64,000 nucleotides of DNA, from positions 31,615 through 95,614 of the forward strand of contig CAWILD010000014.1 in assembly GCA_963836815.1 (NCBI GenBank), read 5' to 3'. Positions 473 through 58,940 of this stretch are shown piece after piece. Source of the DNA: an uncultured Gemmatimonadales bacterium. GTDB taxonomy: Bacteria > Gemmatimonadota > Gemmatimonadetes > Gemmatimonadales > GWC2-71-9. Position 1 is the first letter of the stretch. Every line of letters begins with the position of its first letter. The notes beneath the pieces were generated by a model that was not told the DNA's origin, searched no databases, and was given only the letters and a program-made list of their open reading frames with translations. The position numbers and the translations under genes are program-made.

Positions 473-2883
473 ATGAACGTCTCACTCCGCTGGCTCGAAG
501 CCTTTCTCCGCCGCCCGCTCGACCCGAAGGACGTGTCCGAGCGTCTCGTCATGCTCGGCGCTCCCGTGGACGCCATCGAGTCGCTCCATGGCGACCTCGA
601 AGGTCTCGTGGTCGGCCTGGTGGAGGAGGTGCGCCAGCACCCCAATGCCGATCGGCTCCGGGTCTGCCTGGTGAACGACGGGACGGCTGAGCGACTCCAC
701 GTGGTCTGCGGGGCGCCGAACGTCACCGCGGGCAGGAAGTATCCGTTCGCCCGCGTCGGCACGAGCGTCCCGCACGGCAAGGGCGGCGCTCCGATGAAGA
801 TCGAGAAGGCCAAGCTCCGCGGCGAGCTGTCCGAAGGGATGCTCTGCTCCGCCGCGTGAGCTGGGACTCGGTCAGGATCACGACGGCATTCTCGAGCTCG
901 ACACCGACGCCGCCCCGGGCACCCCTCTCCTCGAGGCGGTGCCGCTGGCGGATCACCGGCTGGTGGTGGACGTCACCCCCAATCGTCCGGACCTGCTCTG
1001 TCACAAGGGAATCGCCCGCGAGCTCTCGGCATCGTACAAGACGCCGTTCCGCCTGCCGACCATTCCGGGGGCGGAAACCGTGGACGTCCCACCGTCGCGC
1101 CGTTCCGCCGATACCGGCGTAGTCGGCGGCATCACCATCACAATCGAAGACACCGAGTCCTGCCCGCGCTTCCATGGCGCGCTGATCCGGGGCGCCAAGG
1201 TCGGCCCGTCGCCCGAGTGGCTCCGGCGGAGGCTCGAAGCGGTCGGGGTGCGCTCGATCAACAACGTGGTGGACGCGACCAACTACGTGATGTTCGAGCT
1301 GAACCAGCCGATGCACGCCTACGACGCCGCCACGCTGCGGGGTGCGAAGCTCGTCGTCCGCCGGGCGAGGGCCGGCGAGCGGCTGGTGACGCTCGACGGC
1401 GTCGAGCGCGAGCTGTCGCCCGAGATGATCGCCATCGGGGATGCCGAGGGGGTCATCGGGTTGGCCGGCGTGATGGGCGGCGCCACCACCGAGGTGGGCA
1501 ACGAGACTCGCGACGTGCTGCTCGAGGGCGCCTACTGGAATCCGTCCCGGATCCGGCGCGCCCGTCGCACGCTCGGCATGACCAGCGAGGCGAGCTATCG
1601 GTTCGAGCGCGGCATCGACCGGTGGGGCGGGACGGATGCGATGCGCCGCTGCATCCAGATCCTGCTGGCCACGGCAGGCGGCGAGCTGGCCGAGGCGCCG
1701 CTCGACCTCTGGCCCGAACCGTCGCATCCGCCGCGGATCTTTCTCCGGCCCGCGCGGGTCACGCAGGTGCTCGGCGTGGAGGTGCCCTGGGCGGCTATCG
1801 AGCAGTACCTCGTCGCCATCGGCGCGACGGTGGTCTCCAAGCCGGACGACGGCCGGATCGCGGTGGACGTGCCGGGCTGGCGTCCCGACCTGGTGCGCGA
1901 GATCGACCTGATCGAGGAGATCGCGCGGCTACACGGCTACGACTCGTTCCCCGCCGATCTTCGTCCTTTCCGGCTCGGCAGCCTGCCGGATGCGCCCGAG
2001 GAGGCAGCCATTCGCGCGGTTCGGCGCGGCATGGTGAACCAGGGCCTCTACGAAGTCTCCCGACTTCCGATGGGGCCGCAGGACGGCGACGACAGCGTGC
2101 GTCTCGCCAATCCGCTGTCCGCGGAAGATGCGTGGCTCCGCCGACGGCTCCTCCCTGGGCTGGTTCGACTGGTCGAGGCGAACTGGGCGAATCACGTGTC
2201 CGACGTGCGCCTCTTCGAGATCGGCACCGCCTGGACGGCCGGCGCCCCCTGGCGAGCGCCCTCGGGAGGAGCAACGGGTGGCCGCCGTGCTGACCGGGAG
2301 ACGGGAGCCCGAGCATTGGACAGGCAGTGGAGAGGCCCAGCTCGACCTCTGGGACCTGAAGGGCCGGTTCGAGGCCGCCGTCGCTCTGGCGATTCCCGGT
2401 GGGGAGATACAAGTTGAGGGCGGCGCTTGGGTTGCCCGGGACGCCGGCGGCCGGATCGTGGGCGAAGCATCGCCTCTCATAGCCGACGCGCCGCCATGGG
2501 CCGCCCCGCTGTTCGGATTCGAGCTGGTCCTCGACCCGTCGCCTCGACAGGCTCCCCAATTCGCGCCGCTCCCGACGACTCCCGCCGTGGATCGGGTGTT
2601 GGCGTTGCTCCTGCCCGCGGGCGTCCGGGTTGGCGCGGTCGAGGAGCTGCTCCGGCGGGTCGGCGGAGCGCTGCTGGAGCAGGTGAGGGTCGAGAGCGAC
2701 TACCGCGGTCCTGAGCTGCCTCCCGAGACCCGAAGCGTGGCCTTCCGGCTCACCTTCCGGGCGCCGGACCGGACCCTCCGGGATGCGGAGGTGGATGCCG
2801 TGGAGACCAGGCTGCTGGCCGTGCTGGCCTCGGAGCTCGGAGTGCGGCGCCGCGACGCCGGGACTTCCCGCGCGGGAGAGTGA
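473..2883 (+). CDS. pheT: phenylalanine--tRNA ligase beta subunit; reading frame broken twice
   Basis: ORFs 473-859, 939-2417 and 2128-2883 in three frames are colinear with PheT: N-terminal tRNA-binding domain MNVSLRWLEAFL.., ..GMLCSA|ELGLGQDHDGILEL.., C-terminal RSVAFRLTFRAPDRTL. The breaks are near 850 and at C-run 2245-2249. Confidence 0.85.
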
Positions 2884-16072: not shown

Positions 16073-16156
16073 GCTCCGGTGGCGAAACTGGCAAACGCTA
16101 CAGACTTAAAATCTGTTGGGAGCAATCCCTTGTGGGTTCGATCCCCACCCGGAGCA
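16073..16156 (+). tRNA. tRNA-Leu (anticodon TAA)
   Basis: Acceptor GCTCCGG/CCGGAGC, anticodon stem-loop cagaCTTAAAAtctg (TAA), long variable arm, T arm gtgGGTTCGATCCccac, discriminator A. CCA is not encoded. Confidence 0.85.
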
Positions 16157-16157
16157 T
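16105..16157 (+). repeat. attL core (3' part of tRNA-Leu), direct repeat 1
   Basis: cttaaaatctgttgggagcaatcccttgtgggttcgatccccacccggagcat is identical to 31122-31174. Confidence 0.85.
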
Positions 16158-16192: not shown

Positions 16193-16220
16193 TTTGCACC
16201 ACCGTTTGCACTACGACCCC
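16193..16220 (+). repeat. tandem GTTTGCAC motif, putative integrase arm-type site (left)
   Basis: tttgcaccaccgtttgcactacgacccc lies 36 bp inside attL. A near-identical copy at 31015-31043 lies about 80 bp inside attR. Confidence 0.5.
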
Positions 16221-17437
16221 TATCTGACTTTCCGCCGCTGCTCGGCTTTAGTCACCTGCTTCTCCCAGTATGCGCGGTCGGCTCCGGTTGGGATGAACAC
16301 GCCGTACGTCGTCAACGTGAGCATTGGGGTCGAGTGGCCGAGCTGCGTCTGCACGACGGCGATGGGCACGCCAGCCCGGAGCCGCATCACGGCCCAGTGG
16401 TGGCGGGCCGCGTGGACTTTGAGCTTGCGGGTCAGCTCGAGCCTCTCGGCCGCGATCCAGCGGTGCCAGTGGTTGACCTGATAGGGCTTCCACTCGGCAG
16501 GGAAGAGCCGCGCGGTGGGCAGCATCCGCTTGACGTGCGCCGCGATGATGGGCCACGCCCAATCGGCTACCATGCACACCCGGTCCCTGGTATGCGTCTT
16601 GGTGCCTGCGGCTCGTATCTCCCGGCTCGCGTCCCACACATCGGCTCGGGTAAGACGCAGGGCTGTGCTCACTTCGATGCCGGTCCCGTACAGAATCGCG
16701 AAGAGTGCCCGCCTTTCGGGCGTCGCTTGTGCGTCCACGATCCGCCGCACCTCACCTAACTCATAGAACTCCACCGGCGCCTTCCCCTCGGCCGGTCGGC
16801 TCACAGCATCCATCGGGTTGGCGGAGAAGTGGCCGTGAACTCGGGTCACATATTCGAAAAACAGTGACCAAGCCGAATGAACCCGCCGAAGCGTATTCCG
16901 CTTACCGGGGTAAGCCGCCGACCTCTCCGTGAGCCACGCTGTGGTGACCCGGCTCAGGGAGCGCGGCCCGCCCTCAGGCAGCAGCCAGCGGACATGCACG
17001 AGGATCTGGTCGCCATAACCCGCGGAGACGCCCCGGCTGTGCGCCGTGTGCCATGGCTTCACGAGCGGCTCCAGGTCCACGTCGGCCAGGAGCCGCCGCA
17101 TCTCGACCACGTTGTAGCGAGTGGAGACCCACAAGTCGTAGAGCCGCCCGAGTCGCGCCGGTCGATCTCGTCGGCGTGCCATGAGGACAGGCTCGAGCAG
17201 GTCCCAGGCGCGGTGCTCGGCGGCGAGGCATTCCCACATCGCCGCGATCCGTTGGGCCAGCGCCTTCCCCCCAGCGGTGAGGGGAGCTACGGTCTGCAGT
17301 TGCCTGAACCTGCGTTGGGAAGATGCAGCCGCGCGGGGCCTCTCAGAAACGTGATGTGATGCCGCCGGGTGGTCTACTACCACCTCGCCCGCACTACCTG
17401 CGTTCCTGTTAGCGCTCATGGAGGGCACCGCCCTCAC
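16220..17437 (-). CDS. tyrosine-type site-specific integrase
   Basis: 405 aa. The C-terminal catalytic region carries R (LRLTRAD), HAARHHWAV (HxxR) and LGHSTPMLTLTTYGVF (catalytic Y). Adjacent to the tRNA. Confidence 0.85.
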   Translation of the reverse strand: MRAVPSMSANRNAGSAGEVVVDHPAASHHVSERPRAAASSQRRFRQLQTVAPLTAGGKALAQRIAAMWECLAAEHRAWDLLEPVLMARRRDRPARLGRLYDLWVSTRYNVVEMRRLLADVDLEPLVKPWHTAHSRGVSAGYGDQILVHVRWLLPEGGPRSLSRVTTAWLTERSAAYPGKRNTLRRVHSAWSLFFEYVTRVHGHFSANPMDAVSRPAEGKAPVEFYELGEVRRIVDAQATPERRALFAILYGTGIEVSTALRLTRADVWDASREIRAAGTKTHTRDRVCMVADWAWPIIAAHVKRMLPTARLFPAEWKPYQVNHWHRWIAAERLELTRKLKVHAARHHWAVMRLRAGVPIAVVQTQLGHSTPMLTLTTYGVFIPTGADRAYWEKQVTKAEQRRKVR

Positions 17438-18377: not shown

Positions 18378-18503
18378 TTGACAGCCCCGGTACGGCACCG
18401 TACATCAGGGGTACTCCACGACAAAGGCACACCCGGCGAAAGCCGGGGCCGCAACGCGCCGAGATGCGCTCGTGCGAAGATCCCCCTCGCAGAGGAGGTT
18501 TCC
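18378..18503 (+). promoter_or_regulatory. promoter + conserved hairpin leader, copy A
   Basis: TTGACA-17 nt-TACATC, then cacgacaaaGGCACACCCGGCGAAAGCCGGGGCCGCAacgcgcc (CCCGGC/GCCGGG stem, GAAA loop), a CCCCTC..GAGGAGG stretch and GTG 18504. Repeated at 26644 and 28333. Confidence 0.5.
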
Positions 18504-18834
18504 GTGTCCACACGCCTGCCTGCCCTTCTGCTTCCGGTCATCCTCGCCTGCTCCCGGTCCACAGCCGAGAGCGCCTCTAGCGCCGCTCCTGTTAGCAGTG
18601 AGAACGATGAAGCGGCGCGCCGGGGCCGTTTCGCAGCTGGAGGATGAATGGGCAAACGCCCTCGAGGCGCACGACACGACGTTCTTGGCTCGGGTGGTTG
18701 CTCCCGACTTAACCACATCGAGTGTCACGCAGGGCCCCCTGCAGAACTCCACGTTCCACGCGCATCCCTGGAGAACGCTCTACTCGAGCGGGCCTCCGCG
18801 CCCGTCCGGCCTGTCGGCTGCATTTGCGGGTTAG
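18504..18834 (+). pseudogene. DUF4440/SnoaL-like lipoprotein, frameshifted and truncated by an attC half-site
   Basis: The lipoprotein signal VSTRLPALLLPVILAC is in one frame and ..QLEDEWANALEAHDTTFLARVVAPD.. in another, with at least two shifts. The 3' end runs into the inverted attC half-site at 18806-18838. Confidence 0.55.
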
Positions 18835-18838
18835 GCGG
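18806..18838 (-). repeat. solo attC left half (R''-L''), inverted orientation
   Basis: The reverse complement reads CCGCCTAACCCGCAAATGCAGCCGACAGGCCGG, the conserved attC left end. No matching right end was found. Confidence 0.6.
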
Positions 18839-18855
18839 CGTGCATGAATGTTCGA

Positions 18856-19056
18856 TTACATCTGCCTCTCGACCTGGCGCACGAGGCGAAAAGCCCAGAT
18901 GGCAAGCGCTGCCGGGAGGAGGAGGCCGATCACGGAGACCCAGAGCGGTACGACCCAATCGCCTAGTTCGGCCGGTACCCGGTACACAAGCCGAAGAAGG
19001 TGGCCGAGCGCGATGAGCCCGAACAAGGTGCCCGAGATTTGCAGATAGTACCTCAT
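18856..19056 (-). CDS. small membrane protein (2 TM), unknown function
   Basis: 66 aa with two hydrophobic helices (ISGTLFGLIALGHLL, VSVIGLLLPAALAIWAF). GGAAGGAAA lies 6 nt upstream of the ATG. Confidence 0.5.
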   Translation of the reverse strand: MRYYLQISGTLFGLIALGHLLRLVYRVPAELGDWVVPLWVSVIGLLLPAALAIWAFRLVRQVERQM

Positions 19057-19113
19057 TGGCTGTTTCCTTCCAGGGGCGGGCGAAGCCCCCTTTCTGACCG
19101 GGCTGGTGCTGCC

Positions 19114-19265
19114 GCCTAACGAAAATGCGCATCAGCCGCGGGGCCATCGTGCCGATGCCCGCACAAACCTACGCTCCATACGTCCCACAGCGCGCTCCAG
19201 GTGCGCTGCGACCGAGCGGAGGGCAGCGCTACCTCCGGCCCGTCGGCTGCATGCGCGGGTTGGGC
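19114..19265 (-). repeat. attC site, inverted orientation (152 bp)
   Basis: The minus strand reads GCCCAAC-ccgcgcatgcagccgacgggccgg ... gcggctgatgcgcattttc-GTTAGGC. It belongs to the long-class family found in the main array. Confidence 0.75.
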
Positions 19266-19366
19266 CGCACCCGGCGCAGCTGCGAACTATGAACCTTCGG
19301 GCCGCCGTCTTGGGCGGACTTACAGCTCCAATGAGCGCGCCTGCCACAATGCCTACCGGGTTTATC

Positions 19367-22274
19367 TCACTGCTCCTGAGTGAGGCGCTCGAGCGCCCCT
19401 CGTGCCTCGGCCACATACGGCTGAAGCTCCGGGTCAGCATGTCGCCACGCATCGGCTACGAACTGGTAGGCCCGGATGGCGGCCCTGCGCTCGCCCAGCC
19501 GCTCCGCCGCCCGCGCCCCTTCGAGGACACCGATGACGCGCAAGCACTGAAATGGGAGACACTGCCGTCAATTCCGATCTCTCGAGCACGGTCCGATCAT
19601 CCCCGCGGGTGGCCTGCAGCCCCAACCTGACAAGGGGCTCGAAATAGCAGACGGCACACAGGGAATCGGGAAGCTGCTCGAATCGCCGAAGTGCATCGGC
19701 CGTATCATGCCGCACCAGCGCGAGGTACGCGTGCGCGGCCTCGCCTCCGAATACGGCCTCCTCGCGCAGTACCGGGTCCGGGCTCGACCTCAACAGTGAG
19801 TCGGCGAGCTCCCGGAATCGCAGGATCGAGCGGGCGTCACCATGGCTCGCCCACCAGGGGAGCGCGACGCGCGCGGTCCGGAGATCGCCAGCGCGTAGCC
19901 ATCGGTCGAAGTAGAACCCGGCGGTGTCGGCGGGGTAGAGACCCTGGAGGGCTAGTTCCGCGAACACTCCGGGAGCGGCGATGGGATCAGGGCTCAACGC
20001 CGCGGCTGCTTCACGCAGATGTCCGCGGAAATGAAGCGTGCTGGCCAGCTTCCTGCGACGCATCTCGCTCGTGAGCCAGGCGGCGGAGCTGTCGGGACTT
20101 GCCGCCAGGGCCCGCGCGACGCGCACGGCGACCTCCCCGGTGTCGGCCGCGTTCACCCCTGCGTACCAGGCCTTGTGGAGCGTGATGGCCGACGCCAGCT
20201 CGAGCCGTCGCTGCATCGCCGATCCGGATTGCCTGGGGTCGGGCAGATCGAGTCCGAGGCGCGCCCCGTCGGCGGTCACGTCGCCGGGGGCAAGCTTGAG
20301 GTACTCCACCGCGTAGCGCCGTGCTGCGTCGAGACCACGAGCGGCGGATGCCATCTCGAAGGGGTGGATGTAGGCCGGGGCGTAGGCGGAATCCAGCGCG
20401 ATTGCACGATCGAAGGCAGCAATCGTCTCGGAGATCGGGATCGCTCGGCCCTGGTGACGGTAGACCTCACCAAGTGTGTACCAGGCATCGGTGTCATTGG
20501 GGTACCGGCGCACGGCCTCTTGCGCGGTCGCGAGAAGTCGTCGGTAGGCCGCCCACGTCAGCATCCCCTCCAGCTGGTTGGAGTCCACCGCGACGAGGAG
20601 GCTGTCACGCGGCGCGAGACCATGATTCAGCGCCCCGGCCCGGAGCGAGAGTGCGACGGACAGAGATTCGCCGTCGGCTCGTTGCCAGCCCACCACGCGG
20701 CCGAGCCGCCAGAGCGCCAGCGCGAAGCTGCTGTCGAGGGCTGCAGCGCGCTCGTAGGAAGCCAGCGCCGAGTCCCACGCGCCGTGGCGGAACCACTGCT
20801 CACCCTGCAGAAACGCCTTCATCGCGGCCGGCGAGGTCGAGCCGAGCGATGCGATGCCCGTGAGCTCGACGCGTCTGGCACGGCCGAGCGCACCGAGGAC
20901 TCGCACCGCGAGCGAGTCGCCCAGTCGGTCGATCCTGCTCACCTCGTCCTGCAGCTCGAACTCTCCCAGCGGTCGTCCGGTCTCGACGTCCAGCAGGGTG
21001 GCGCGGACACGGGCCGAGTCCCTGCCGGCGGGTACCAGGCTCCCGAAGAGGCTCAGCCGCGCACCGGTCCGCCGGCCGAGCTCGGCGGCCGCCAACGGAT
21101 CAGCGTGCCCGGACCAGCGCCGTACGACGGCCGTGGGCGGTACCGTGCGAATCGGGCCCGCGCCATCGAGGTTGCGGGAGAGCAGGTCTACCAGCCCCTC
21201 GCGCCACAACTCGAATGAGGGTGAGAGGACGTCGAATGGAGCAACCGCGAGAAGATCAGTATCGAGCGCGCGGGGCGCCGCCTTCTGACGCCACAGCAGC
21301 GCCACCGCCGCTGCGCCCACGGCGATCGCGAGTCCCAGGCCGACCAGGACCGCCCGGCCCGGTCGACGAACTCTTGACGACGGCGGCGGCGCGGACAGCG
21401 CCCGCAGGAATTCCGCGACTGTGGCGAACCGATCGGCCGGGACGACCGCCAATGCCTTTTGAACGGCCGCATCCACGGCCGGGGGCACCGTCGGGCGCAG
21501 CCGACTCAATGCCGGAGCGGGTTGGATGAACCGCTTCGCCACGACCGCCTGCGGCGTCGGCCCGGTGAAGGGCGGCTCTCCAGCGAGCATCTCGTGGAGC
21601 ACGCATCCCAACGCATAGATGTCAGTCCGGGCGTCCACCAGCCCGGCGCCGGCCTGTTCCGGGCTCATGTACGTCGGCGTGCCGACGGCGAGGCCGGTAC
21701 CGGTGAGCTCCTCGCCACCAGCCGCCTCGACCGCACGCGCGATCCCGAAATCCCCCACCCGGGCGTGCCCATGGGCGAGCAGGATGTTTTCGGGCTTGAT
21801 GTCCCGGTGGATCACGCCGTGGCGGTGAGCGTAGTCCAGCGCGTCCCCTACCTCCCGCGCAATCGCGAGCGCGTCGTCCAGCGGCAGCTGCGGCTCCCTT
21901 CGGAGCCGATCCCGGAGACTTTCCCCCTCGACGAATGGCATCGTGTACCACAGGCGACCGAGGGTCTCGCCCGAGTCCAGCACCGGCAGGATATGGGGGT
22001 GATCCAGGCGTGCCGTCAGCTTGATCTCGCGGAGGAAGCGCTCCGGTCCCAGTGCCGCCGCGAGCTCCCCGTGTAGCAGCTTCAGGGCGACGTGACGGTC
22101 GTGTTTCTCGTCGCGGGCGAGATAGACCGTCGCCATGCCACCGCGCCCGAGCTCCCGGTCAATCATGTAGCGGCCCCGAAGGGCATCAGTCAGAGACGAA
22201 TCAATCGCGGTCACGAGACTGCCAGGTGGGAGACTACTAGAAGGTGATGACAGGATCCCGATGAATATTAGCAA
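19367..22274 (-). CDS. Ser/Thr protein kinase with large TPR-like C-terminal region; one frame break near the 3' end
   Basis: Hanks kinase motifs GRGGMATVY, VALK, HRDIKPENIL, DFG, TPTYMSPE, followed by a TM segment and a helical-repeat region. The last ~70 codons continue in another frame (..LRVIGVLEGARAAERLGERRAAIRAYQFVADAWRHADPELQPYV..) to the stop at 19367. Confidence 0.85.
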
Positions 22275-22301
22275 GGTTCACCGGGTGACACAGGCCAGCT
22301 G

Positions 22302-22385
22302 GGTGAACAGCGGCAGGCTATCTATCTCTTAACCCTTCGAAGCTCCACGGGGTTAAGAGAGAGAGATAGAGCTGAGCTGTTCACC
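22302..22385. repeat. 84-bp near-perfect palindrome (MITE-like or terminal-repeat pair)
   Basis: ggtgaacagc-ggcagg-ctatctatctcttaaccc / gggttaagagagagagatag-agctga-gctgttcacc. One arm recurs at 62165-62204. Confidence 0.6.
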
Positions 22386-22715
22386 TTTCCCTTAGAGCTC
22401 AAGTCTGACCAACAGCGTCATTACGGCAGCTATCGAGCACCCTTGAGCGCGAACGCGCCCTCAGCGCATAGAATTAGAGCGCAGGTCACAGGAAGTTTGG
22501 ATCTGACACGACGTGATTTGGGCTGGCGGGCACCGCAGTCTACTTCTAGTTGGGCAGCAGGGGAGGAGTTCAAGTCACGGCCGGGATACGCAGGAACAAC
22601 AGCGTGCCGCGACTCACACTTGAAGGCACCATGTTTGGTCATGTAATCGGCTTGCCCCTCCTCGCTCTCGTGGCCACTCCGTTTACATTGCCTATACACT
22701 CCGCATCCAAGTCTT

Positions 22716-23549
22716 ATGAGTGACCCATTAGCAGCGGCCAAGCTCAAGGCTGAGACAGCCTACAATGCTGCCGCAGACTACTTCGACGCCGAGCCCTTGG
22801 GGTTCTGGGCGCGGTATGGCCGGCGGACCGTCGATCGGCTGCGGCTGCATCGTGGGGCGCACGTACTGGATGTGTGCTGTGGCACCGGTGCCTCCGCGTT
22901 ACCTGCGGCGGAAGCCGTCGGCCCCGAGGGCCACGTCATCGCAGTTGATCTTGCGGGCGAACTCCTCGCCCTTGGCCAGGCCAAGGCCCAGGCCGCAGGG
23001 CTGCAGTGCGTGGAGTTCCGTCGTGGGGACATGACAGACTTGGGCTTTCCCGATCGTCATTTTGACGCGGTGGTCTGTGTGTTTGGGATTTTCTTTGTCC
23101 CGGACATGGAGCACCAGGTGGCGGAGCTATGGCGCATGGTGCGGCCCGGCGGGCAGCTGGCGATCACCACGTGGGGCACACGATTTTGGAGCCCGGCGTA
23201 CGAGATTTGGTTGGAAGCCGTGCGCCGAGTGCGCCCCGATCTGTATACCGCATTTAACCCTTGGGACCGCATCACGACACCGGAGGCGGTCCGCACGCTC
23301 CTCCACGACGGTGGTGCTCAGAGTATCGATGTTGCTGCAGAAGAGGGGTACCAGAAACTGCGCACGCCAGAGGATTTCTGGATCATGGCACTGGGGAGTG
23401 GCCTGCGGTGGACGATCGATAAGATGGGCTCCGAGTTGGCACGCGAGGTGAAGCACGAGATCCTAGACCGGCTTGCTGCCGCGGGGGTCGATCGCGTTGC
23501 AACCAACGTCATCTATGCCACCGCCGAGAAGCCGTCAGGCCCGGCCTAA
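22716..23549 (+). CDS. class I SAM-dependent methyltransferase
   Basis: VLDVCCGTGASALPAAEAV (motif I), VIAVDLAGELL, and FDAVVCVFGIFFV. The stop TAA lies inside the R''-like box of the following attC. Confidence 0.8.
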   Translation: MSDPLAAAKLKAETAYNAAADYFDAEPLGFWARYGRRTVDRLRLHRGAHVLDVCCGTGASALPAAEAVGPEGHVIAVDLAGELLALGQAKAQAAGLQCVEFRRGDMTDLGFPDRHFDAVVCVFGIFFVPDMEHQVAELWRMVRPGGQLAITTWGTRFWSPAYEIWLEAVRRVRPDLYTAFNPWDRITTPEAVRTLLHDGGAQSIDVAAEEGYQKLRTPEDFWIMALGSGLRWTIDKMGSELAREVKHEILDRLAAAGVDRVATNVIYATAEKPSGPA

Positions 23550-23703
23550 TATCGCTTGGGCCGACCGCACTAGTTCTAGCATCCCCTGGCTGCCGCCCGC
23601 CCCCGACCACCGCTCGGCCACAGCGCGCCCTGGCGCGCTGTGGAAGGAAGGTTTGTGCGCGGGGAACGATGATGCCCGGTAACTGATGCGCAAGTCGCTA
23701 GAC
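23544..23703 (+). repeat. degenerate attC site (160 bp)
   Basis: GCCTAAT..gggccgac ... ggaaggtttgtgcgcgggg..ggtaactgatgcgcaagtc-GCTAGAC. The interior matches the long-class attCs, while both outer boxes are mutated. Confidence 0.55.
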
Positions 23704-23963
23704 CCCGAAGGAGAGCCTATGCCGCGTTGGGAATACGCATCCGGAGTCTCCCAGGAGCGCCAGCCCGGTCCATGGCGACGAGTAAAGAGCCTGCCACCCA
23801 TCGGGCGTGACCTGGAGGGTACTGTAGTACGCTTCGAACCACACCGCGGCGACTCCTGGGAGAGGCGCTCGGCCCCGACCACCGGGGGAGGCGTGGACTG
23901 GCCTTCGAGAGGGACTGCGACGGCAGCGCGGGATAGCGCAAGGGTGACGCACAGGAGACGCAT
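23698..23963 (-). CDS. small secreted hypothetical protein (frame break; weak call)
   Basis: The signal-like start MRLLCVTLALSRAAVAVPLEG is in one frame and ..VWFEAYYSTLQVTPDGWQALYSSPW.. in another, ending at 23698. Confidence 0.25.
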
Positions 23964-24185
23964 ACTCTCCTCCATCCATCAGCTGGTTGGCAAGGGAGCT
24001 CGCGCTCGAGCGTGTAGCGGTCGCCAGGGCGGCCTTGAACCTTTCTAGGTCTCGCTCGGAGAGACCTGTCGGACTGGGGTATGTTAGGCTACAGGCCCCA
24101 GGTCCCTGTCGGACCAGACACGCCCGCCGGAGGTTGGTCGAGAAAGAGAGGACAGTTGGGAAAGCGGCCCTGCTCGGGATCGACG

Positions 24186-24510
24186 CTACCCCGAATCGAG
24201 TGCCCGGATCGGCCCAGTCTCCCGGATCTCGACCGGTACCCCTTCGAGTTTGGAGGGGATCGCGCGTGCCAGCTCTGAAGGTCTTCCGCACCACCAGCAC
24301 CAGGATGCAGGGCCGGCCGCCGCACACACCCTCGGCCGTGCCGACCACTCCCGGGCGCGCCATGAGCCGCTCGGTGTGGCGGCCGAGCACCTGGGCGACA
24401 GTGTCGTGCTGGATAGTCCGCCCCTCGGGTCCGCGCGGCGGCCCTGCCGACAACCGGCACCCGCTCGCGGTGGCGAGCGCGAGGAGCGCCGGGAGCACGA
24501 GCCCACGCAC
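24186..24510 (-). CDS. stand-alone protease-propeptide-like lipoprotein; one frame break
   Basis: The lipoprotein signal LLALATASGC and HTERLMARPGVVGTAEG..ILVLVVRKT | SELARAIPSKLEGVPVEIRETGPIRAL parallel the pro-region of the adjacent S1 protease (HTDRLLRSEGVVGTAIG..VQIFTKT..RGLPISLDGVPV). The shift is near 24282. Confidence 0.5.
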
Positions 24511-24517
24511 CGCGCGA

Positions 24518-25611
24518 TCAGGTGCCGTCGATCGTCACCCCGAGGGCGTTGAGCACGGCGCCGATCGGATTGGCGATGGTGTACCCGTTCGAGCTCCCGG
24601 CGAAGAGCAGGGCGACGGGCCGCTTGCTGGAATTGTTGGTGACGATGAGCGAGCCCGAGTCGCCCGCGCGGGAGAACTGCCCCGGCCCTCGGACCACCAC
24701 CTGGCCGACGAAACGCGCGGTCCCATGGCTGTAGGCGACGTTGACGGTGGCGTTGATGCCGACCACCGCGCCAGTGGTGCGCCCCGTAGTCCGGCCGTAC
24801 TTCTGCACCGGCTGATTGAGCACGGCAGCAATGATCGCGGAGCTGGGGACTCCATACCCGTCGGATGGCGTGCGCCGGCCCAGATTGGCGGTGCTGCTGA
24901 TAGCCATGGCGGCATCGACCTTGTTGTTCGCCGTGGTGGAGAAGACGATCCTGACGAACTTGCTGAGGCTGCCGATGATGGCGTCTGACCCGCTGGCGCA
25001 GGCCAGATCGTACCGGCCGGGCTGGAGGACCTTGCTGCCGATCGGGGCCGAGTTCTCCAAGGCGTAGACGTGGTTGTTACTCACCGCATAGACCGCGGTG
25101 CCGGACTTGCCCCTAAAGCCGATGGTTCCGGCGGAGCACTGGCCCTTGTTTCCGGTGGAGACCCCGATTGGCACCGGCCGGGGAAACCTCGACTTGGGGT
25201 TGATGCTGAGGGCCGCGGCGGCCGGAGCGGCGGACGGCCGCGGGGATCGCGCGGATCCTCGCCCAGTAACGACTGGAGAGACGGGCACCCCGTCCAAGCT
25301 GATCGGCAGCCCGCGGATCACGCGGCGGTCTTGGTGAAGATCTGGACGGCGACCCGGCCGTTCGGCGCGAGCCCGATCGCGGTGCCGACCACGCCCTCGC
25401 TCCGGAGCAGTCGGTCGGTATGCCGGCCCTGGGCCGCGAGCGCCTGGGCCAGTCCGGGCGGCTCGGCCCCGACGGCGGCGAGGTTAGGCGGCGCGGTATC
25501 GGGAGGCTCGGTTGCGTCGTGGGTGCAGCTGAGGACCGGAAGGGCGAAGGCGAGGAGCAGCATCCACGGGGAAAGAACCCGGCCCCGGAGGCCGCGGAAG
25601 ATACTGCGCAT
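24518..25611 (-). CDS. secreted S1 (chymotrypsin/alpha-lytic-type) serine protease with pro-region; one frame break
   Basis: ATG 25611, signal MLLLAFALPVLSC and a pro-region. After a 1-nt break at 25318-25321 comes the protease domain with ..SNNHV.., ..NKVDAAM.., GDSGS (catalytic Ser). Confidence 0.8.
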
Positions 25612-25768
25612 ATCTGGAGACCTCTCGGGAGCGCAGGGAAGTGAGTTGAGATCTTGAAGATAGACCGAGTCGATCAGCAGGCTAGAGGTTTCAGACGGCC
25701 GGTGGAAAGGGCGCGGAGAATGGTGCGGAGACACGGGTACACGGCGAACAGCACGATCACTCGTCAAC

Positions 25769-26173
25769 TCAAGGCGTCGAGCCGGTGCGCGGGTCGTCCT
25801 TCGGGTCGACGTAGGTGATCGCAAAGGGACCTGTGCTCTGGACCTCCAACATGACGCGGCTGGCCGCATGTACGAAGTGAGGCTCCTTCGCGCCGATCGT
25901 GACGGGATCGTTGGGGGCCATCGCCTTCATGGCCTTCTCATGCCACTTCGCTCCGTGGCCCAGGTGCAGCGTGCCCTCGAGCAGGCGGAGCGTCTTGTTC
26001 GTGGGCGTGACAAGCACAGCGCCATAGCCGGGAAGAGCTCCCCCATAGTCCTTGACTCCTGAAAAGTGACCGCGGCTATACTGCGGCCATGCCTTCAACC
26101 GATCGTCCCAACCGAAGGCCTCGCTTTCGCGAGCAGCTAGGCTGGAGCCATGTGCTGCTCGCATGGGGCGCAC
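25769..26173 (-). CDS. hypothetical protein (possibly cupin-fold)
   Basis: 134-codon ORF with beta-rich sequence LRLLEGTLHLGHGAKWHE..PHFVHAASRVMLEVQSTGPFAITYV. The N-terminal boundary is uncertain. Confidence 0.4.
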   Translation of the reverse strand: MRPMRAAHGSSLAARESEAFGWDDRLKAWPQYSRGHFSGVKDYGGALPGYGAVLVTPTNKTLRLLEGTLHLGHGAKWHEKAMKAMAPNDPVTIGAKEPHFVHAASRVMLEVQSTGPFAITYVDPKDDPRTGSTP

Positions 26174-26550
26174 TCCTCTGTGCCTGTCAGGTCGACCCGC
26201 GGCGCTCGCCGGGGGACAGCCTGGTCACCTGGTCTGGCGAGGAACTTCGCGACGCACCGCCGCCGCCGCCGCCGCGCGATACCTCGCCTTTCAAGAAGGT
26301 GGAGCGTCTACCGCTAGCCACGGACTCAACACGGGTGCTCGCCGTTGCGGAACAACCGCCGGATGATCGCTGGTGCCGTGGAGACACCCTTGTCTGGTTC
26401 TGGCACGAGGGGCTGGAGGTGTCCTTCTTGGACGGCTACATCGTGGAGAGCCATCTCGCTTTCCCAGCAGGTTTCGAGGGCAACAGGCACGTTCACAGGC
26501 CGGTTGCGGAACGCCGATGCACGGTTGTCGGCGCGAGGCGTGGCTCTTGA
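26152..26550 (+). CDS. hypothetical lipoprotein
   Basis: GTG 26152 gives VLLAWGALLCACQ (lipobox), followed by a Pro-rich linker and a beta-rich body. The ATG 26089 alternative overlaps the neighbouring gene. Confidence 0.35.
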   Translation: MLLAWGALLCACQVDPRRSPGDSLVTWSGEELRDAPPPPPPRDTSPFKKVERLPLATDSTRVLAVAEQPPDDRWCRGDTLVWFWHEGLEVSFLDGYIVESHLAFPAGFEGNRHVHRPVAERRCTVVGARRGS

Positions 26551-26643
26551 CCCATGAAAGGTCGATGCTGCTAGACTAGCGGCATGACCCCTTCATATTG
26601 GCCCTGAGCGCTGGGAGGTCCCCCTGCTGATCGCACCATAGCA

Positions 26644-26824
26644 TTGCGTGATATAGCGCAACGCTATATACTGTACCTGCCAACCGAGAGAGCACACCCG
26701 GCGAAAGCCGGGGTCGCAAAGCCACGGATCCTCGCCTCCTCCGCGACGCCGGCCTTCGGCCAGCCACCACCGAGGTCCCAAGATCGCCGAGCTGCTGCTA
26801 TTGCAGGCTCGGCGTTTTCTTGTT
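26644..26824 (+). ncRNA. candidate small RNA: promoter + hairpin-leader module (copy B) ending in an intrinsic terminator
   Basis: TTGCGT-17 nt-TATACT; core GCACACCCGGCGAAAGCCGGGGTCGCA at 26692-26718; CCTCGCCTCCTCC stretch; stem GCCGAGC[tg]CTGC-TATT-GCAGGCTCGGC followed by GTTTTCTTGTT (26786-26824). No start codon follows at the position seen in copies A and C. Confidence 0.35.
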
Positions 26825-27011
26825 CCGGTGGGCTTCATAACACTCGCCCACCCCGCCGTCTTGCCGAACCCGAACAGCTAGCTGCACCGACCAGATCGAG
26901 CAGCGTCTACCACGCTCGGAGGTTGCAAGCACGACGAGGGCCACGGGCGTAATGACCCAGACCGCTGAGCCTGCCACGAGACGGGTCTCACTCTACCCCT
27001 AGGAGGCTTCC

Positions 27012-28012
27012 ATGAAGCCAATTGCCATTAGCAGTCTGAGGTGCTCAATGCGGAAAATGGCGCTTGGATTTCCTATCCCCTTGGGAGGGAGCATGCACGT
27101 CCCGTTACATGCGCTCGAAGCCTGGAGCGCTCCGCGGCTCGCCCGCAGCGCGCACACCGCCGTCCGTGTCTCGCTTGGGATTGTCCTCGGATCAGGTGCC
27201 GCCCTGCTCACGGCGTGCGGAGATTCACCGGGCCGCCCCCTCCCTCGCCTGCCGCCGAAAATCCAGCATTTGTTGTGGGCGGCACGAGCGACGCGGCGAA
27301 CCGGTACGCGAACGTCGGCGTCCTGCAGCTCAACGTCGGCGGCGACGACTGGTTCGACTTCTGCTCGGGGACGCTGGTCCGCCCGAACGTCGTCCTCACG
27401 GCCGCCCACTGCACGGACTTCCTGGTCGAGGAGGGGGAGGACGGGTTCGGCCCCGCCGACCTGCGGATCTCGTTCGATCCGGAAGGCGACGCTCCGTACT
27501 CGACGGTCGACCACATCGTCGTGCATCCGGACTGGTTCACGAGGCAGGAGCCGTGCCGAGGCAACTCGAAGCAGCTCTGCCTGGCGCCTCCGGCCGAGGA
27601 CATAGGGCTCGTCTTCCTGGACGCTCCGGTCGGCGGCATCACCCCGGCGCCCATCGCCGATCCGACGTACCTGGCCGGGCTCAGCCTCACTGGCGAGACG
27701 TTCACCGTCGTGGGATACGGCGTCGATGCGTTCATCACCGGGAGCACGTTCGCCAACCATCCGGTCGTGTTCGTCGACGGCATCCGGAGCTACCGGGACG
27801 TCTCGGTGATCACGACGCACGACGCGTTCCCGGATCGGTTCCTGAAGATCACGCAGAGCATGTGCTTCGGCGACTCGGGCGGCCCGCTCTTCCACGGGGC
27901 CACGCTCGTCGGAATCAACACCTGGACGTTCAGCCTGCGGTGCTCGGGGCCGAACTTCGCGTACCGCGTCGACTCGCCGGCAGCGCAGAGCTTCCTCGCG
28001 GCGAACCTCTAA
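27012..28012 (+). CDS. secreted trypsin-like S1 serine protease; one frame break
   Basis: AGGAGG precedes ATG 27012 (ATG 27093 also has GGGAGGGAG). Lipobox AALLTAC. After a shift in C-run 27236-27240: VVGGT.., TAAHC (His), DIGLV (Asp), GDSGGP (Ser). Confidence 0.8.
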
Positions 28013-28332
28013 GTGACGATCTAGTCACCCAGCCTGGGCAGCACCCAGGCGACTCTTCCGAGCCCGCCTGCTTCCGCGGGCTCAGCATCACTAGTTTGCC
28101 TTCTTGGTCGGTCACCAGCGGACGGCCAGCCCGACAAGCCGGAGGATCTGTCAGCCCGTCGAGCTCGAGTCTTGGGGACACGCCCCGGAGTGTTGAGAAG
28201 CCGCGTGGTCTGGCACTAGCCCGGCACTATGAAGCACGGCGCACGGGGATATTCTGCGGTGCACCGCGTGTGATGCCACAAGCACTTGGCGAAGGGCAGG
28301 CGGCCGCCAGTCCTCATAATGCCGGCCCGCTC

Positions 28333-28456
28333 TTGACGGCCCCTGTACCGCGTCCTATCTCAGGGCCTACCATCCCTCGACAAAGGCACACCCGGCGAAA
28401 GCCGGGGCCGCAGCGCCACGGGTCCTCACGCTCGGTCAGACGGACGGGAGGAGGGC
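28333..28456 (+). promoter_or_regulatory. promoter + conserved hairpin leader, copy C
   Basis: TTGACG-17 nt-TATCTC, ctcgacaaaGGCACACCCGGCGAAAGCCGGGGCCGCAgcgcc (core 28385-28412), then a TCCTC...GGGAGGAGGG pairing and ATG 28457. Confidence 0.5.
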
Positions 28457-28714
28457 ATGCACAAGCCAGGGAAACGAGGCGAGCGCCAAGTGCGCCTCAA
28501 GCCACAATACGCACACCTGTACCGAGGCATCCCCCCGAACGAGTGGTGGCCGGCGTGGCTGCTGGCAGAGCAACTACTTGCCAGGGCGGAAGCCGAGGGC
28601 GTTCCCGAGCAGCAACGGATTTGCGATCCCAGCCATTTTGTGTTTCGGGGTGGGCAGAGCCGGGAGCCGCGTCTCCAGGATCTGCGAACCCGGCGATCAG
28701 ACGTCACTCCGTGA
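28457..28714 (+). CDS. small hypothetical protein downstream of leader copy C
   Basis: 85 aa with a strong SD (GGGAGGAGGG) 4 nt upstream of the ATG. MHKPGKRGERQVRLKPQYAHLYRGIPPNEWWPAWLLAEQLLARAE... No family recognised. Confidence 0.5.
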   Translation: MHKPGKRGERQVRLKPQYAHLYRGIPPNEWWPAWLLAEQLLARAEAEGVPEQQRICDPSHFVFRGGQSREPRLQDLRTRRSDVTP

Positions 28715-30835: not shown

Positions 30836-31014
30836 GCTATCTTAGCTCCGCCTTTCCCGGTGCGTAAGAGGGACCTTCGATGTTGGTGCGGGCTGTGTGT
30901 GGCAGGCCGTTGTTGGCAGGGTCAGGTCTACCGACCCTGCGCTCCGGAGCAAGAGGTCGCGGAACAGGGGGAAGGGTAGGGGAGTGGATCGGCCGAAGCC
31001 TACTCGGGAGAACC

Positions 31015-31043
31015 TTTGCACCACCGTTTGCACTATAGACCCC
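31015..31043 (+). repeat. tandem GTTTGCAC motif, putative integrase arm-type site (right)
   Basis: tttgcaccaccgtttgcactatagacccc, compared with 16193-16220. Confidence 0.5.
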
Positions 31044-31121: not shown

Positions 31122-31174
31122 CTTAAAATCTGTTGGGAGCAATCCCTTGTGGGTTCGATCCCCACCCGGAGCAT
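31122..31174 (+). repeat. attR core: duplicated 3' part of tRNA-Leu, direct repeat 2
   Basis: Identical to 16105-16157. It lacks the 5' half of the tRNA, so it is not a gene. Confidence 0.85.
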
Positions 31175-58663: not shown

Positions 58664-58940
58664 GTGACCGACGTGACGGCCTCCGCATTGGCCAACGCCC
58701 TTCGCGATCGCTACCGCCTTGAGCGTGGCTGCGGACGCGGCGGGATGGCGACGGTGTATCTTGCCGAGACCTGAAGCACGGCCGCGAGGTCGCGCTCAAG
58801 GTCCTTCGCCCGAAGTGGCCGCGGCGCTCGGTACCGAGCGGTTCCTGCAAGATCCATATCAGCGCCCGGCTCGACCACCCCCACATCCTCACCTTGATAG
58901 ACTAGGGCCAGAAGACGGTTGGTGTGGTACGTACTGCGGT
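58664..58940 (+). pseudogene. Ser/Thr kinase N-terminal fragment (frameshifted, stop-containing)
   Basis: ..[22 protein letters not shown]|..[23 protein letters not shown].. is readable only by switching frames. It is paralogous to the N-terminus of the kinase at 19367-22274. Confidence 0.65.

Follow-up and report, generated by a model that had tools for sequence, protein, structure and literature searches.

The 64,000-nucleotide stretch of contig CAWILD010000014.1 considered here (hereafter the window), which derives from an uncultured Gemmatimonadales bacterium (assembly GCA_963836815.1), carries three copies, A, B and C, of a leader module in which a promoter-like sequence is followed by a GAAA-capped hairpin. 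All three are cargo of a ~15-kb island associated with a tRNA-Leu gene, where they precede, respectively, the remnant of a lipoprotein gene, a gene for a lipoprotein trypsin-like protease and an open reading frame (ORF) termed ORF85. We assign a probability of about 0.8 to the reading that this module corresponds to the promoter together with the 5' core (the 5' strand of helix P1, the GAAA-capped helix P2 and a CGCA junction) of a Gemmatimonadales subtype of the cyclic di-GMP (c-di-GMP) riboswitch class c-di-GMP-I (GEMM-I), with B being a complete copy and A and C being derivatives of such a copy. The elements of the three copies are as follows:

18378..18406, + strand: promoter of copy A, with the -35 hexamer TTGACA at 18378-83, a 17-nt spacer and the -10-like hexamer TACATC at 18401-06
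18415..18457, + strand: GEMM-I 5' part of copy A, with the P1 5' strand, P2 with its GAAA loop (18432-18447) and a CGCAA junction; P3 is absent
26644..26672, + strand: candidate promoter-like site of copy B, with TTGCGT at 26644-49, a 17-nt spacer and TATACT at 26667-72
26681..26799, + strand: complete GEMM-I aptamer of copy B (RF01051, 45.0 bits), with P2 at 26692-26717 and an extended P3 at ~26720-26793
26691 (A20), 26718 (A47) and 26795 (C92), + strand: ligand-contact positions of copy B, from the alignment to the Rfam model
28333..28361, + strand: promoter of copy C, with TTGACG at 28333-38, a 17-nt spacer and TATCTC at 28356-61
28374..28428, + strand: GEMM-I 5' part of copy C, with the P1 5' strand, P2 with its GAAA loop (28391-28406), the junction and the P3 5' strand GCCACGGGTCCTC

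The threefold occurrence of the module, on which the original prediction was built, is readily recovered. The string CCCGGCGAAAGCCGGG has three exact matches in the window, all on the + strand (18432-18447 in A, 26697-26712 in B and 28391-28406 in C), against a chance expectation of 0.27, and none of 100 dinucleotide shuffles contained three or more; a longer string, GCACACCCGGCGAAAGCCGGGG(C/T)CGCA, is likewise common to the three copies. The hexamers at 18378, 26644 and 28333 lie at the coordinates and with the 17-nt spacing originally described. The hairpin had also been said to follow at a fixed distance, which holds only approximately, the distance from the -10 hexamer to GCACACC being 20 nt in A, 19 nt in B and 24 nt in C.

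A scan of the whole window against Rfam, one of the checks proposed for the original prediction, identifies copy B (26681-26799) as a member of RF01051 (c-di-GMP-I) with 45.0 bits as against a gathering score of 35 (E = 1.4e-05). Copies A and C are not reported at the gathering level for RF01051. Their best clan matches are to RF03167, the c-di-GMP-I-GGC variant with a gathering score of 59, below which all three copies fall (A 36.3, B 48.1 and C 37.2 bits). The cmscan alignments to this latter model replace 37 positions of P3 with 5 nt in A and with 3 nt in C. Further, an nhmmer search with the full-length profile of the family (121 positions) matched A over positions 3-45, B over 11-118 and C over 3-57, and recovered no orphan aptamer 3' halves in the window. 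Because Rfam places B in RF01051, and A and C in RF03167 alignments from which the second hairpin is deleted, the GAAA-tetraloop hairpin is the P2 (P1a) hairpin of GEMM-I together with its flanking conserved junction nucleotides. The observation of a shared element is real and non-random, and a common ligand-responsive element of the 5' untranslated region (5' UTR) was right in kind; however, the class, which had not been recognized as that of any known riboswitch, is one already described.

Inspection of the individual helices bears out this distinction between the copies. The first hairpin (P2/P1a), defined by G-C pairs, an ACA bulge, a 6-bp stem, a GNRA tetraloop and a GGGnCGC return, is present in all three as GCACACCCGGCGAAAGCCGGGG(C/T)CGC. 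The second hairpin (P3/P1b) is complete in B, absent in A and represented by its 5' strand only in C. Among the ligand-contact nucleotides, B displays A20, A47 and C92 (alignment columns 14, 41 and 135), whereas A displays G20 and A47 with no segment able to supply C92, and C displays G20 and A47 with an A, lying in a purine-only tract, aligned to C92. With the Vibrio cholerae Vc2 representative of RF01051 the module shares the core GGCAnACC, the 6-bp stem, the GAAA loop and GGGnCGCAAAGCC, after which a second hairpin closes the three-helix junction; additionally, copy B retains A47 and C92, scores above the curated threshold and, in a manner typical of GEMM, lies in the 5' UTR of a gene whose product is a secreted or surface protein. 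It differs from Vc2 in the long P3 of the Gemmatimonadales versions, which lacks the classical CUAAG...UAUG tetraloop-receptor motif and has a UCCUCC/GAAGGA extension helix in its place, in the A20 of copy B in lieu of G20, and in the lack of P3 or of its 3' strand in the sub-threshold copies A and C. The RF03167 model, which includes the P1 stem and the common P2 core, is the best clan member for A, for C and, in E-value mode, for B; yet its consensus has a G at position 47 (CGCGAA), where all three copies have an A, and none of them reaches 59 bits.

These results leave next to no probability for the notion that the module belongs to a riboswitch or leader class not recognized before, or that it is a repeated or mobile DNA element of a generic kind. 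The repetition itself speaks for such a notion, and nothing further does. It is refuted by the significant match to a curated Rfam family and by the comparative results, in which more than 100 homologues run on into the canonical GEMM-I fold; moreover, all copies are co-oriented with their downstream genes and situated behind promoters.

The homologues were gathered by a pattern scan with GCACACCNNNNGAAANNNNGGGNCGCA across 185k genomes, one per species, which returned at least 117 loci. Among the matches listed, all but a few apparent chance matches (e.g., L010, L029, L049 and L087) proceed from CGCAaagcc... into a full canonical second hairpin, and about 30 loci from Gemmatimonadales metagenome-assembled genomes share the long P3 of copy B. 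The latter form a uniform subtype, often with several copies per genome, whose consensus reads (c)cctcgacaaagGCACACCCGGCGAAAGCCGGGGCCGCAaagccacgggtcctcgcctcctccgcgacgcc, then a variable hairpin, then gccacgaaggaccc.acgaycgccgagctgcc. The neighboring genes of the window are 70-85% identical to those of these genomes, which likewise makes a Gemmatimonadales origin the most likely one. An alignment of 27 full-length relatives (A1) supports three helices, namely P2, the Rfam P3 and the extension, with compensatory changes. In P2, 100% of the cells are paired and two pairs have changed on both sides; the P3 of copy B (alignment positions 43-53 with 122-133) is paired in 95.9% of the cells, with pair 51-124 covarying (GC in 14, GU in 9 and AU in 4 sequences); and in the lineage-specific UCCUCC/GAAGGA extension, pair 64-111 is never unpaired (UA in 19, CG in 6 and UG in 2). 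The classical CUAAG...UAUG receptor is present in most of the non-Gemmatimonadales matches listed but absent from B and its relatives, for which the extension helix may act as a stand-in. Two pairings of the P3 extension (helix X and helix Y) both largely fit the alignment. The conserved GA(A/G)GGACCC (columns 49-55, 61-67 and 108-118; ~26726-26779) has two potential partners: with UCCUCC it can pair while P3 is formed, whereas pairing with GGGUCCU is at odds with the inner P3. Either arrangement is about 86-89% paired across the 27 sequences. This dual pairing of GAAGGACCC could constitute a built-in alternative conformer, effected as a lineage-specific strand swap.

With respect to the genes under their control, the ORF following about 14 of 27 related leaders (L003-L131), a set which includes the partial copies L040a and L108b, begins with a lipoprotein-type signal, i.e., a lipobox before a cysteine. 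The leaders at L004, L015 and L117 precede instead a conserved cytosolic protein of ~135 aa. Taken together, the Gemmatimonadales copies form a tight subtype marked by a conserved promoter, a long P3 without the classical receptor, a preference for lipoprotein genes and a variable position 20.

The promoters themselves call for a more qualified statement. A strict sigma-70 consensus scan (17.5-30 kb) reports none of the three sites, and the judgement regarding them rests on comparative conservation instead. For copies A and C, both the position and the sequence of the TTGAC(A/G)-N17-TAnnnn arrangement are conserved with respect to about 30 related loci, and it is at the -35 hexamer that the BLAST homology of the two regions to other genomes sets in. 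At related loci, 31 distinct upstream regions have TTGAC(A/G) 50-69 nt ahead of GCACACC, and in 30 of these a TA-initial hexamer (TAACTC, TAACGT, TAAGTC, TATCTC and others) follows 17 nt past it; the regions were picked by the TTGAC anchor, so that its invariance is circular, a reservation that does not extend to the constant spacing or to the TA. The promoter of copy C is further kept in L146, an independently assembled strain-variant contig 98.5% identical to the window, in L156 and in related riboswitch loci. The promoter-like site of copy B, in contrast, is unlike the conserved type seen in A and C. On these comparative grounds the promoters of A and C appear phylogenetically conserved and real enough, in support of the earlier promoter call for these two copies. 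Within the spacer (18384-18400 in A, 28339-28355 in C), ~7 nt past TTGACA, there is a GTACC (GCACC or GGACC in some relatives) that is conserved in ~20 related loci as well; since spacers are rarely conserved, this could be the site of a regulator or a feature specific to a particular sigma factor.

Copy B is associated with two features that bear on its mode of action:

26785..26824, + strand: intrinsic terminator, with a stem formed by 26785-26798 and 26803-26814, then TTTTCTTGTT at 26815-26824
27012..28012, + strand: protease gene (Pfam Trypsin, E = 2e-18; lipobox LLTAC)

The strand 26785-26798 (CGCCGAGCUGCUGC) combines the P3 3' strand, C92 (26795) and the 5' arm of the terminator. RNAfold predicts an equivalent terminator hairpin in B and in nine related loci, and its arms show a compensatory change from U-A to C-G (GAUCGCC...GGCGAU versus GACCGCC...GGCGGU). 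A strict terminator consensus scan (17.5-30 kb) missed the terminator of B, owing to the loop and bulge rules of that scan. Because the same strand serves as the P3 3' strand and as an arm of the terminator, aptamer and terminator are mutually exclusive, and the ligand should consequently favor read-through. The class membership of copy B, its aptamer helices and the overlap of aptamer and terminator can be taken as demonstrated; the copy is most likely an ON switch for the lipoprotein trypsin-like protease, with a direction of regulation and a ligand that we infer. In such a mechanism, a cyclic dinucleotide would bind at the junction of P1, P2 and the extended P3 and hold the strand GAUCGCCGAGCUGC, including the ligand-pairing C92, inside the aptamer. 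In its absence GAUCGCCGAGCUGC would pair with GCAGGCUCGGCG to form the terminator, followed by UUUUCUUGUU, and ligand binding would hence permit read-through into the protease gene. The pilM cGAMP switch, in which the terminator sequesters the ligand-pairing C, displays the same logic (PMC9262584).

The protease gene has two candidate starts (ATG at 27012 and at 27093) and, on three-frame translation, an apparent frameshift near 27225 (indel region 27200-27310). In L146, the signal peptide of the protease is in frame and other indels occur further on; as the indels in the same gene differ there, the frameshift is probably an assembly error, and pseudogenization was rejected as its explanation on the same ground. 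L146 differs from the window by 23 gap openings over 5.5 kb, and single-base indels break frames both in the protease gene and in the lipoprotein gene remnant behind copy A (18615-18625); many of the frameshifts in the window are probably assembly errors.

The identity of the ligand is a separate question. In the known riboswitches the first guanine of c-di-GMP is read by G20, the second forms a pair with C92, and A47 adds to the binding (PMC6140456; PMC5888326), whereas in the riboswitches for cGAMP G20 is replaced by an A, and the G20A variant of Vc2 binds both ligands (PMC6140456). Position 20 is an A in copy B, where the GGC of the model is aligned to AGC, and a G in copies A and C. This tells against an unreserved assignment to c-di-GMP, which is not certain to be the ligand of B. 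That B responds to 3',3'-cGAMP, by itself or alongside c-di-GMP, in the manner of the GEMM-Ib type, is accordingly worth considering, even if we regard it as unlikely. It would account for an A at the G20-aligned position, as known from cGAMP riboswitches (PMC6140456), and for an ON-switch terminator design like that of the pilM cGAMP switch (PMC9262584). Indeed, the GEMM-Ib representatives of Geobacter (Gs1761 and pilM) have the same A20 and an ON-switch terminator which draws in the 3' strand of the aptamer along with its ligand-pairing C (PMC6140456, PMC9262584); they belong, however, to a different phylum, and in the Gemmatimonadales there exist sibling copies differing only at position 20. 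Among the close siblings this position is a G in L003, L108 and L117, an A in L004 and L015, and a U in L011 and L050. Such variation among near-identical paralogues agrees with divergent ligand preferences, but the occurrence of G20 in L003, L108 and L117 in an otherwise identical sequence fits neutral drift as well. Moreover, A20 alone does not set specificity, as the bispecific G20A variant of Vc2 illustrates (PMC6140456), and no cyclase was found among the Pfam-scanned subset of the longer ORFs of the 64-kb window, within which no search was aimed at a cGAMP synthase. A still more doubtful proposal is that one highly conserved GEMM-I scaffold with its own promoter serves the Gemmatimonadales as a sensor family for different cyclic dinucleotides, in which B would turn on a secreted protease in response to cGAMP or to either of the two ligands; if true, it would extend cGAMP riboswitch signaling beyond Geobacter-type bacteria.

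Overall, position 20 (alignment column 14) is a G, an A or a U in otherwise near-identical riboswitches at L003, L004, L011, L015, L050, L070, L083, L108, L114 and L117. The copy at L108:1114-1178 has a U at position 47 and an altered P3, and lies upstream of an ORF which by eye resembles SnoaL/DUF4440 proteins.

Copy A leads into the following features:

18483..18498, + strand: predicted hairpin at the Shine-Dalgarno (SD) sequence, with CCCCTC at 18483-88 facing GAGGAGG at 18492-98; a GTG start codon follows at 18504
18504..18711, + strand: DUF4440-like lipoprotein gene remnant, from tblastn and DNA alignment against the intact 160-aa homologue of L040

The lipoprotein gene reported at 18504 is thus present only as a frameshifted, 3'-truncated remnant, which has a 1-nt insertion near 18621 and loses homology to the L040 protein at residue 69 of 160 (18711). 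The BLAST homology of copy A to its full-length relatives stops at 18457. What comes after CGCAA is, to the eye, more like the distal leader of the L040 orthologue than like P3, in a region which pairwise alignment did not resolve. The CGCCGAG of copy A was considered as a retained P3 3' strand and set aside, being likelier, in the same comparison by eye with the L040 leader, to be downstream leader, a point that pairwise alignment did not settle. For a 66-aa ORF beside copy A, an exact-protein look-up found no match on record. We view copy A as most likely an orphaned promoter with half an aptamer, going by its sequence and that of its relatives.

A related instance of breakage is offered by L040 itself. 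At 1555-2701 (- strand) this locus has an apparently split riboswitch, the 5' part (profile 4-101) and the 3' part (profile 51-119) of which lie ~1 kb apart. The gap carries two genes; the 5' part drives a lipoprotein gene, and the 3' part precedes the gene, here intact, that is orthologous to the remnant following copy A. This arrangement suggests recombination between near-identical riboswitch paralogues.

Copy C in turn runs into the following:

28439..28459, + strand: purine tract GACGGACGGGAGGAGGGCATG, comprising the SD sequence (28446-55) and the start codon of ORF85; it could be a degenerate P3/P1 3' strand
28457..28714, + strand: ORF85, a conserved protein of 85-86 aa with 53 homologues at 66-96% identity

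Here the P3 5' strand GCCACGGGUCCUC passes straight into ACGCUCGGUCAGACGGACGGGAGGAGGGCAUG, with neither a P3 extension nor the canonical 3' strand. This region is identical in the independent assembly L146 and is therefore not an assembly artefact. The TCCTC at 28423-27 faces GGGAGGAGGG at 28446-55, with the ATG at 28457, and the purine tract contains no C; as in copy A, the pyrimidine stretch, the SD sequence and the start codon lie where they had been placed. A Pfam search with ORF85 found no domain. Its homologues adjoin response-regulator genes in several other contigs (L127, L148-L150), and the more distant ones in L127 are not associated with a riboswitch. The leaders of the closer homologues present a graded series. 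The compact leader recurs in L147 (96% identity), where it differs by three substitutions, one of them an A-to-G change in the conserved ACA bulge, and follows upon unrelated-looking upstream sequence; in L156 (83%) the promoter and the SD sequence are retained, but the GAAA loop has become CACA and the bulge is altered; L148-150 (80%) show a 5-bp P2 with A47C, or an AAAA loop; and upstream of the ORF85 orthologues in L151-155 and L157 there is no trace of the element. On account of the missing C92, the mismatches, the uncompensated changes in the orthologues and the marginal SD pairing detailed below, copy C is treated here as a decaying riboswitch whose promoter would now drive ORF85.

Translational control by sequestration of the SD sequence, as originally proposed, finds no favor in these data. 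The sole complete copy, B, would work through a terminator, and in A and C, from which the idea had been drawn, the aptamer is without its 3' half. Neither A nor C has a competing expression platform joined to a complete aptamer. The mean probability of pairing between the SD sequence and the pyrimidine stretch is 0.83 in A, a value reached by 34 of 200 shuffled leaders and therefore not above the controls, and 0.87 in C as against 0.66 in shuffles, which is marginal, with 6 of 200 shuffled leaders reaching it. Since the 3' half of the aptamer is missing, A and C are most likely not ligand-responsive and would act as unregulated promoters and leaders. They would have lost this part by deletion or rearrangement within the 15-kb island, keeping a conserved promoter and P2 hairpin yet being unable to build the ligand pocket. 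Further, a metagenome scan for the A/C junction, GAAAGCCGGGGCCGCARCGC, returned 28 loci with no other A-like or C-like truncated copy among them; 24 are chance matches in coding DNA and four are true riboswitches, all full-length with CGCAACGCC. In their general features A and C are comparable to degenerate or orphaned riboswitch remnants, in that they hold part of an aptamer, that A precedes a pseudogene fragment and that the orthologous leaders lose conserved nucleotides stepwise. They differ from such remnants in having an intact promoter and 5' halves that have not departed from the family consensus, and they may therefore still drive transcription.

Several observations weigh against so regarding these two copies. 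Their 5' halves match the family consensus to the letter, and this, together with the kept leader of copy C, could point to selection rather than to recent truncation or gene conversion. In copy A, the minimum free energy fold of 18411-18480 (-28.4 kcal/mol, z = -2.1) is a three-way junction of P1 CACGA/UCGUG, P2 and a 4-bp P3 GCGC/GCGC, as would be expected of a working mini-aptamer. In copy C, the near-identical leader of L147 is threaded by cmscan along the full length of RF03167 with 35 bits, the SD tract serving as the 3' strand of a short P3; the SD sequence is predicted to be paired to the marginal extent given above; and the leader is kept in both L146 and L147. Additionally, the 3' tract of C, as read from the sequence, has 9 of 17 positions in common with the canonical 3' strand GACCGCCGAGCUGCCGA. 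These latter points are what would be expected if copy C and its L147 twin were a functional, compact GEMM-I-like OFF switch of translation, with a short P3 (CGCC-A-CGG-GUC with GAC-GG-ACG-GGAG) and P1 (CCCUC/GAGGG), in which the ligand would lock the SD sequence GGGAGGAGGG into the aptamer.

Neither proposal holds up well on closer scrutiny. A mini-aptamer in copy A would have no unpaired C for the role of C92 and no tetraloop receptor; no homologue of such an architecture appears in the genome or metagenome scans; the segment past CGCAA looks, by eye and without confirmation by alignment, like the distal leader of L040 rather than P3; the downstream gene is a truncated remnant; and the SD pairing does not exceed that of shuffles. 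We hence regard it as very improbable. A compact switch in copy C, which fares somewhat better but is still improbable, scores below both Rfam thresholds, has two mismatches in P3 and, in place of C92, an A in a C-free tract, and possesses neither a tetraloop receptor nor a P3 extension. Further, the conserved ACA bulge is mutated in L147, and L156 and L148-150 show uncompensated changes in P2, in its loop, at A47 and in the P3 5' strand; the fold of the whole leader has z = -1.0. The interpretation of A and C as partial, most likely non-responsive derivatives of complete GEMM-I riboswitches such as B is therefore retained.

The island that carries the three copies is delimited by the following features:

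16073-16156, + strand: tRNA-Leu(taa), from ARAGORN and Rfam; left end of the island
16105-16157, + strand: left copy of an exact 53-bp direct repeat
16220..17437, - strand: tyrosine integrase (Pfam Phage_integrase, E = 2.5e-10)
31122-31174, + strand: right copy of the exact 53-bp direct repeat (part of the 3' half of tRNA-Leu), marking the right boundary of the island

The tRNA gene, the adjacent tyrosine integrase and the far-end repeat of the 3' part of the tRNA are all present, and the G+C content is 0.70 to the left of the island versus 0.65 inside. A second exact repeat, of 21 nt, links 16193-16213 and 31015-31035. Housekeeping genes (PheT, RNase Y, XseA, Dxs, NAD kinase, RecN and GalK) occupy the flank on the left. 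In the comparison with L146 (5483-5987), the match to the window ends at 30937, ~185 nt before the right repeat, and the right end of the island thus differs between strains. Also encoded on the island is a Ser/Thr protein kinase of 946 aa, the C-terminal region of which is long (19434-22274, - strand). A paralogous kinase-like segment occurs elsewhere in the window (~58689-58889), and in L015, L084, L097 and L117 kinase homologues are likewise found no more than a few kb from riboswitches.

In terms of annotation, the module is corrected from a new leader class to the c-di-GMP-I riboswitch. More generally, the near-identical, multi-copy riboswitches of this lineage appear to break and recombine, leaving behind remnants in the form of a promoter and half an aptamer, which can pass for new RNA motifs and hence call for caution in motif discovery. 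For the biology of the Gemmatimonadales, copy B, as the sole complete copy, would assign the lipoprotein protease of the island to a cyclic-dinucleotide regulon.

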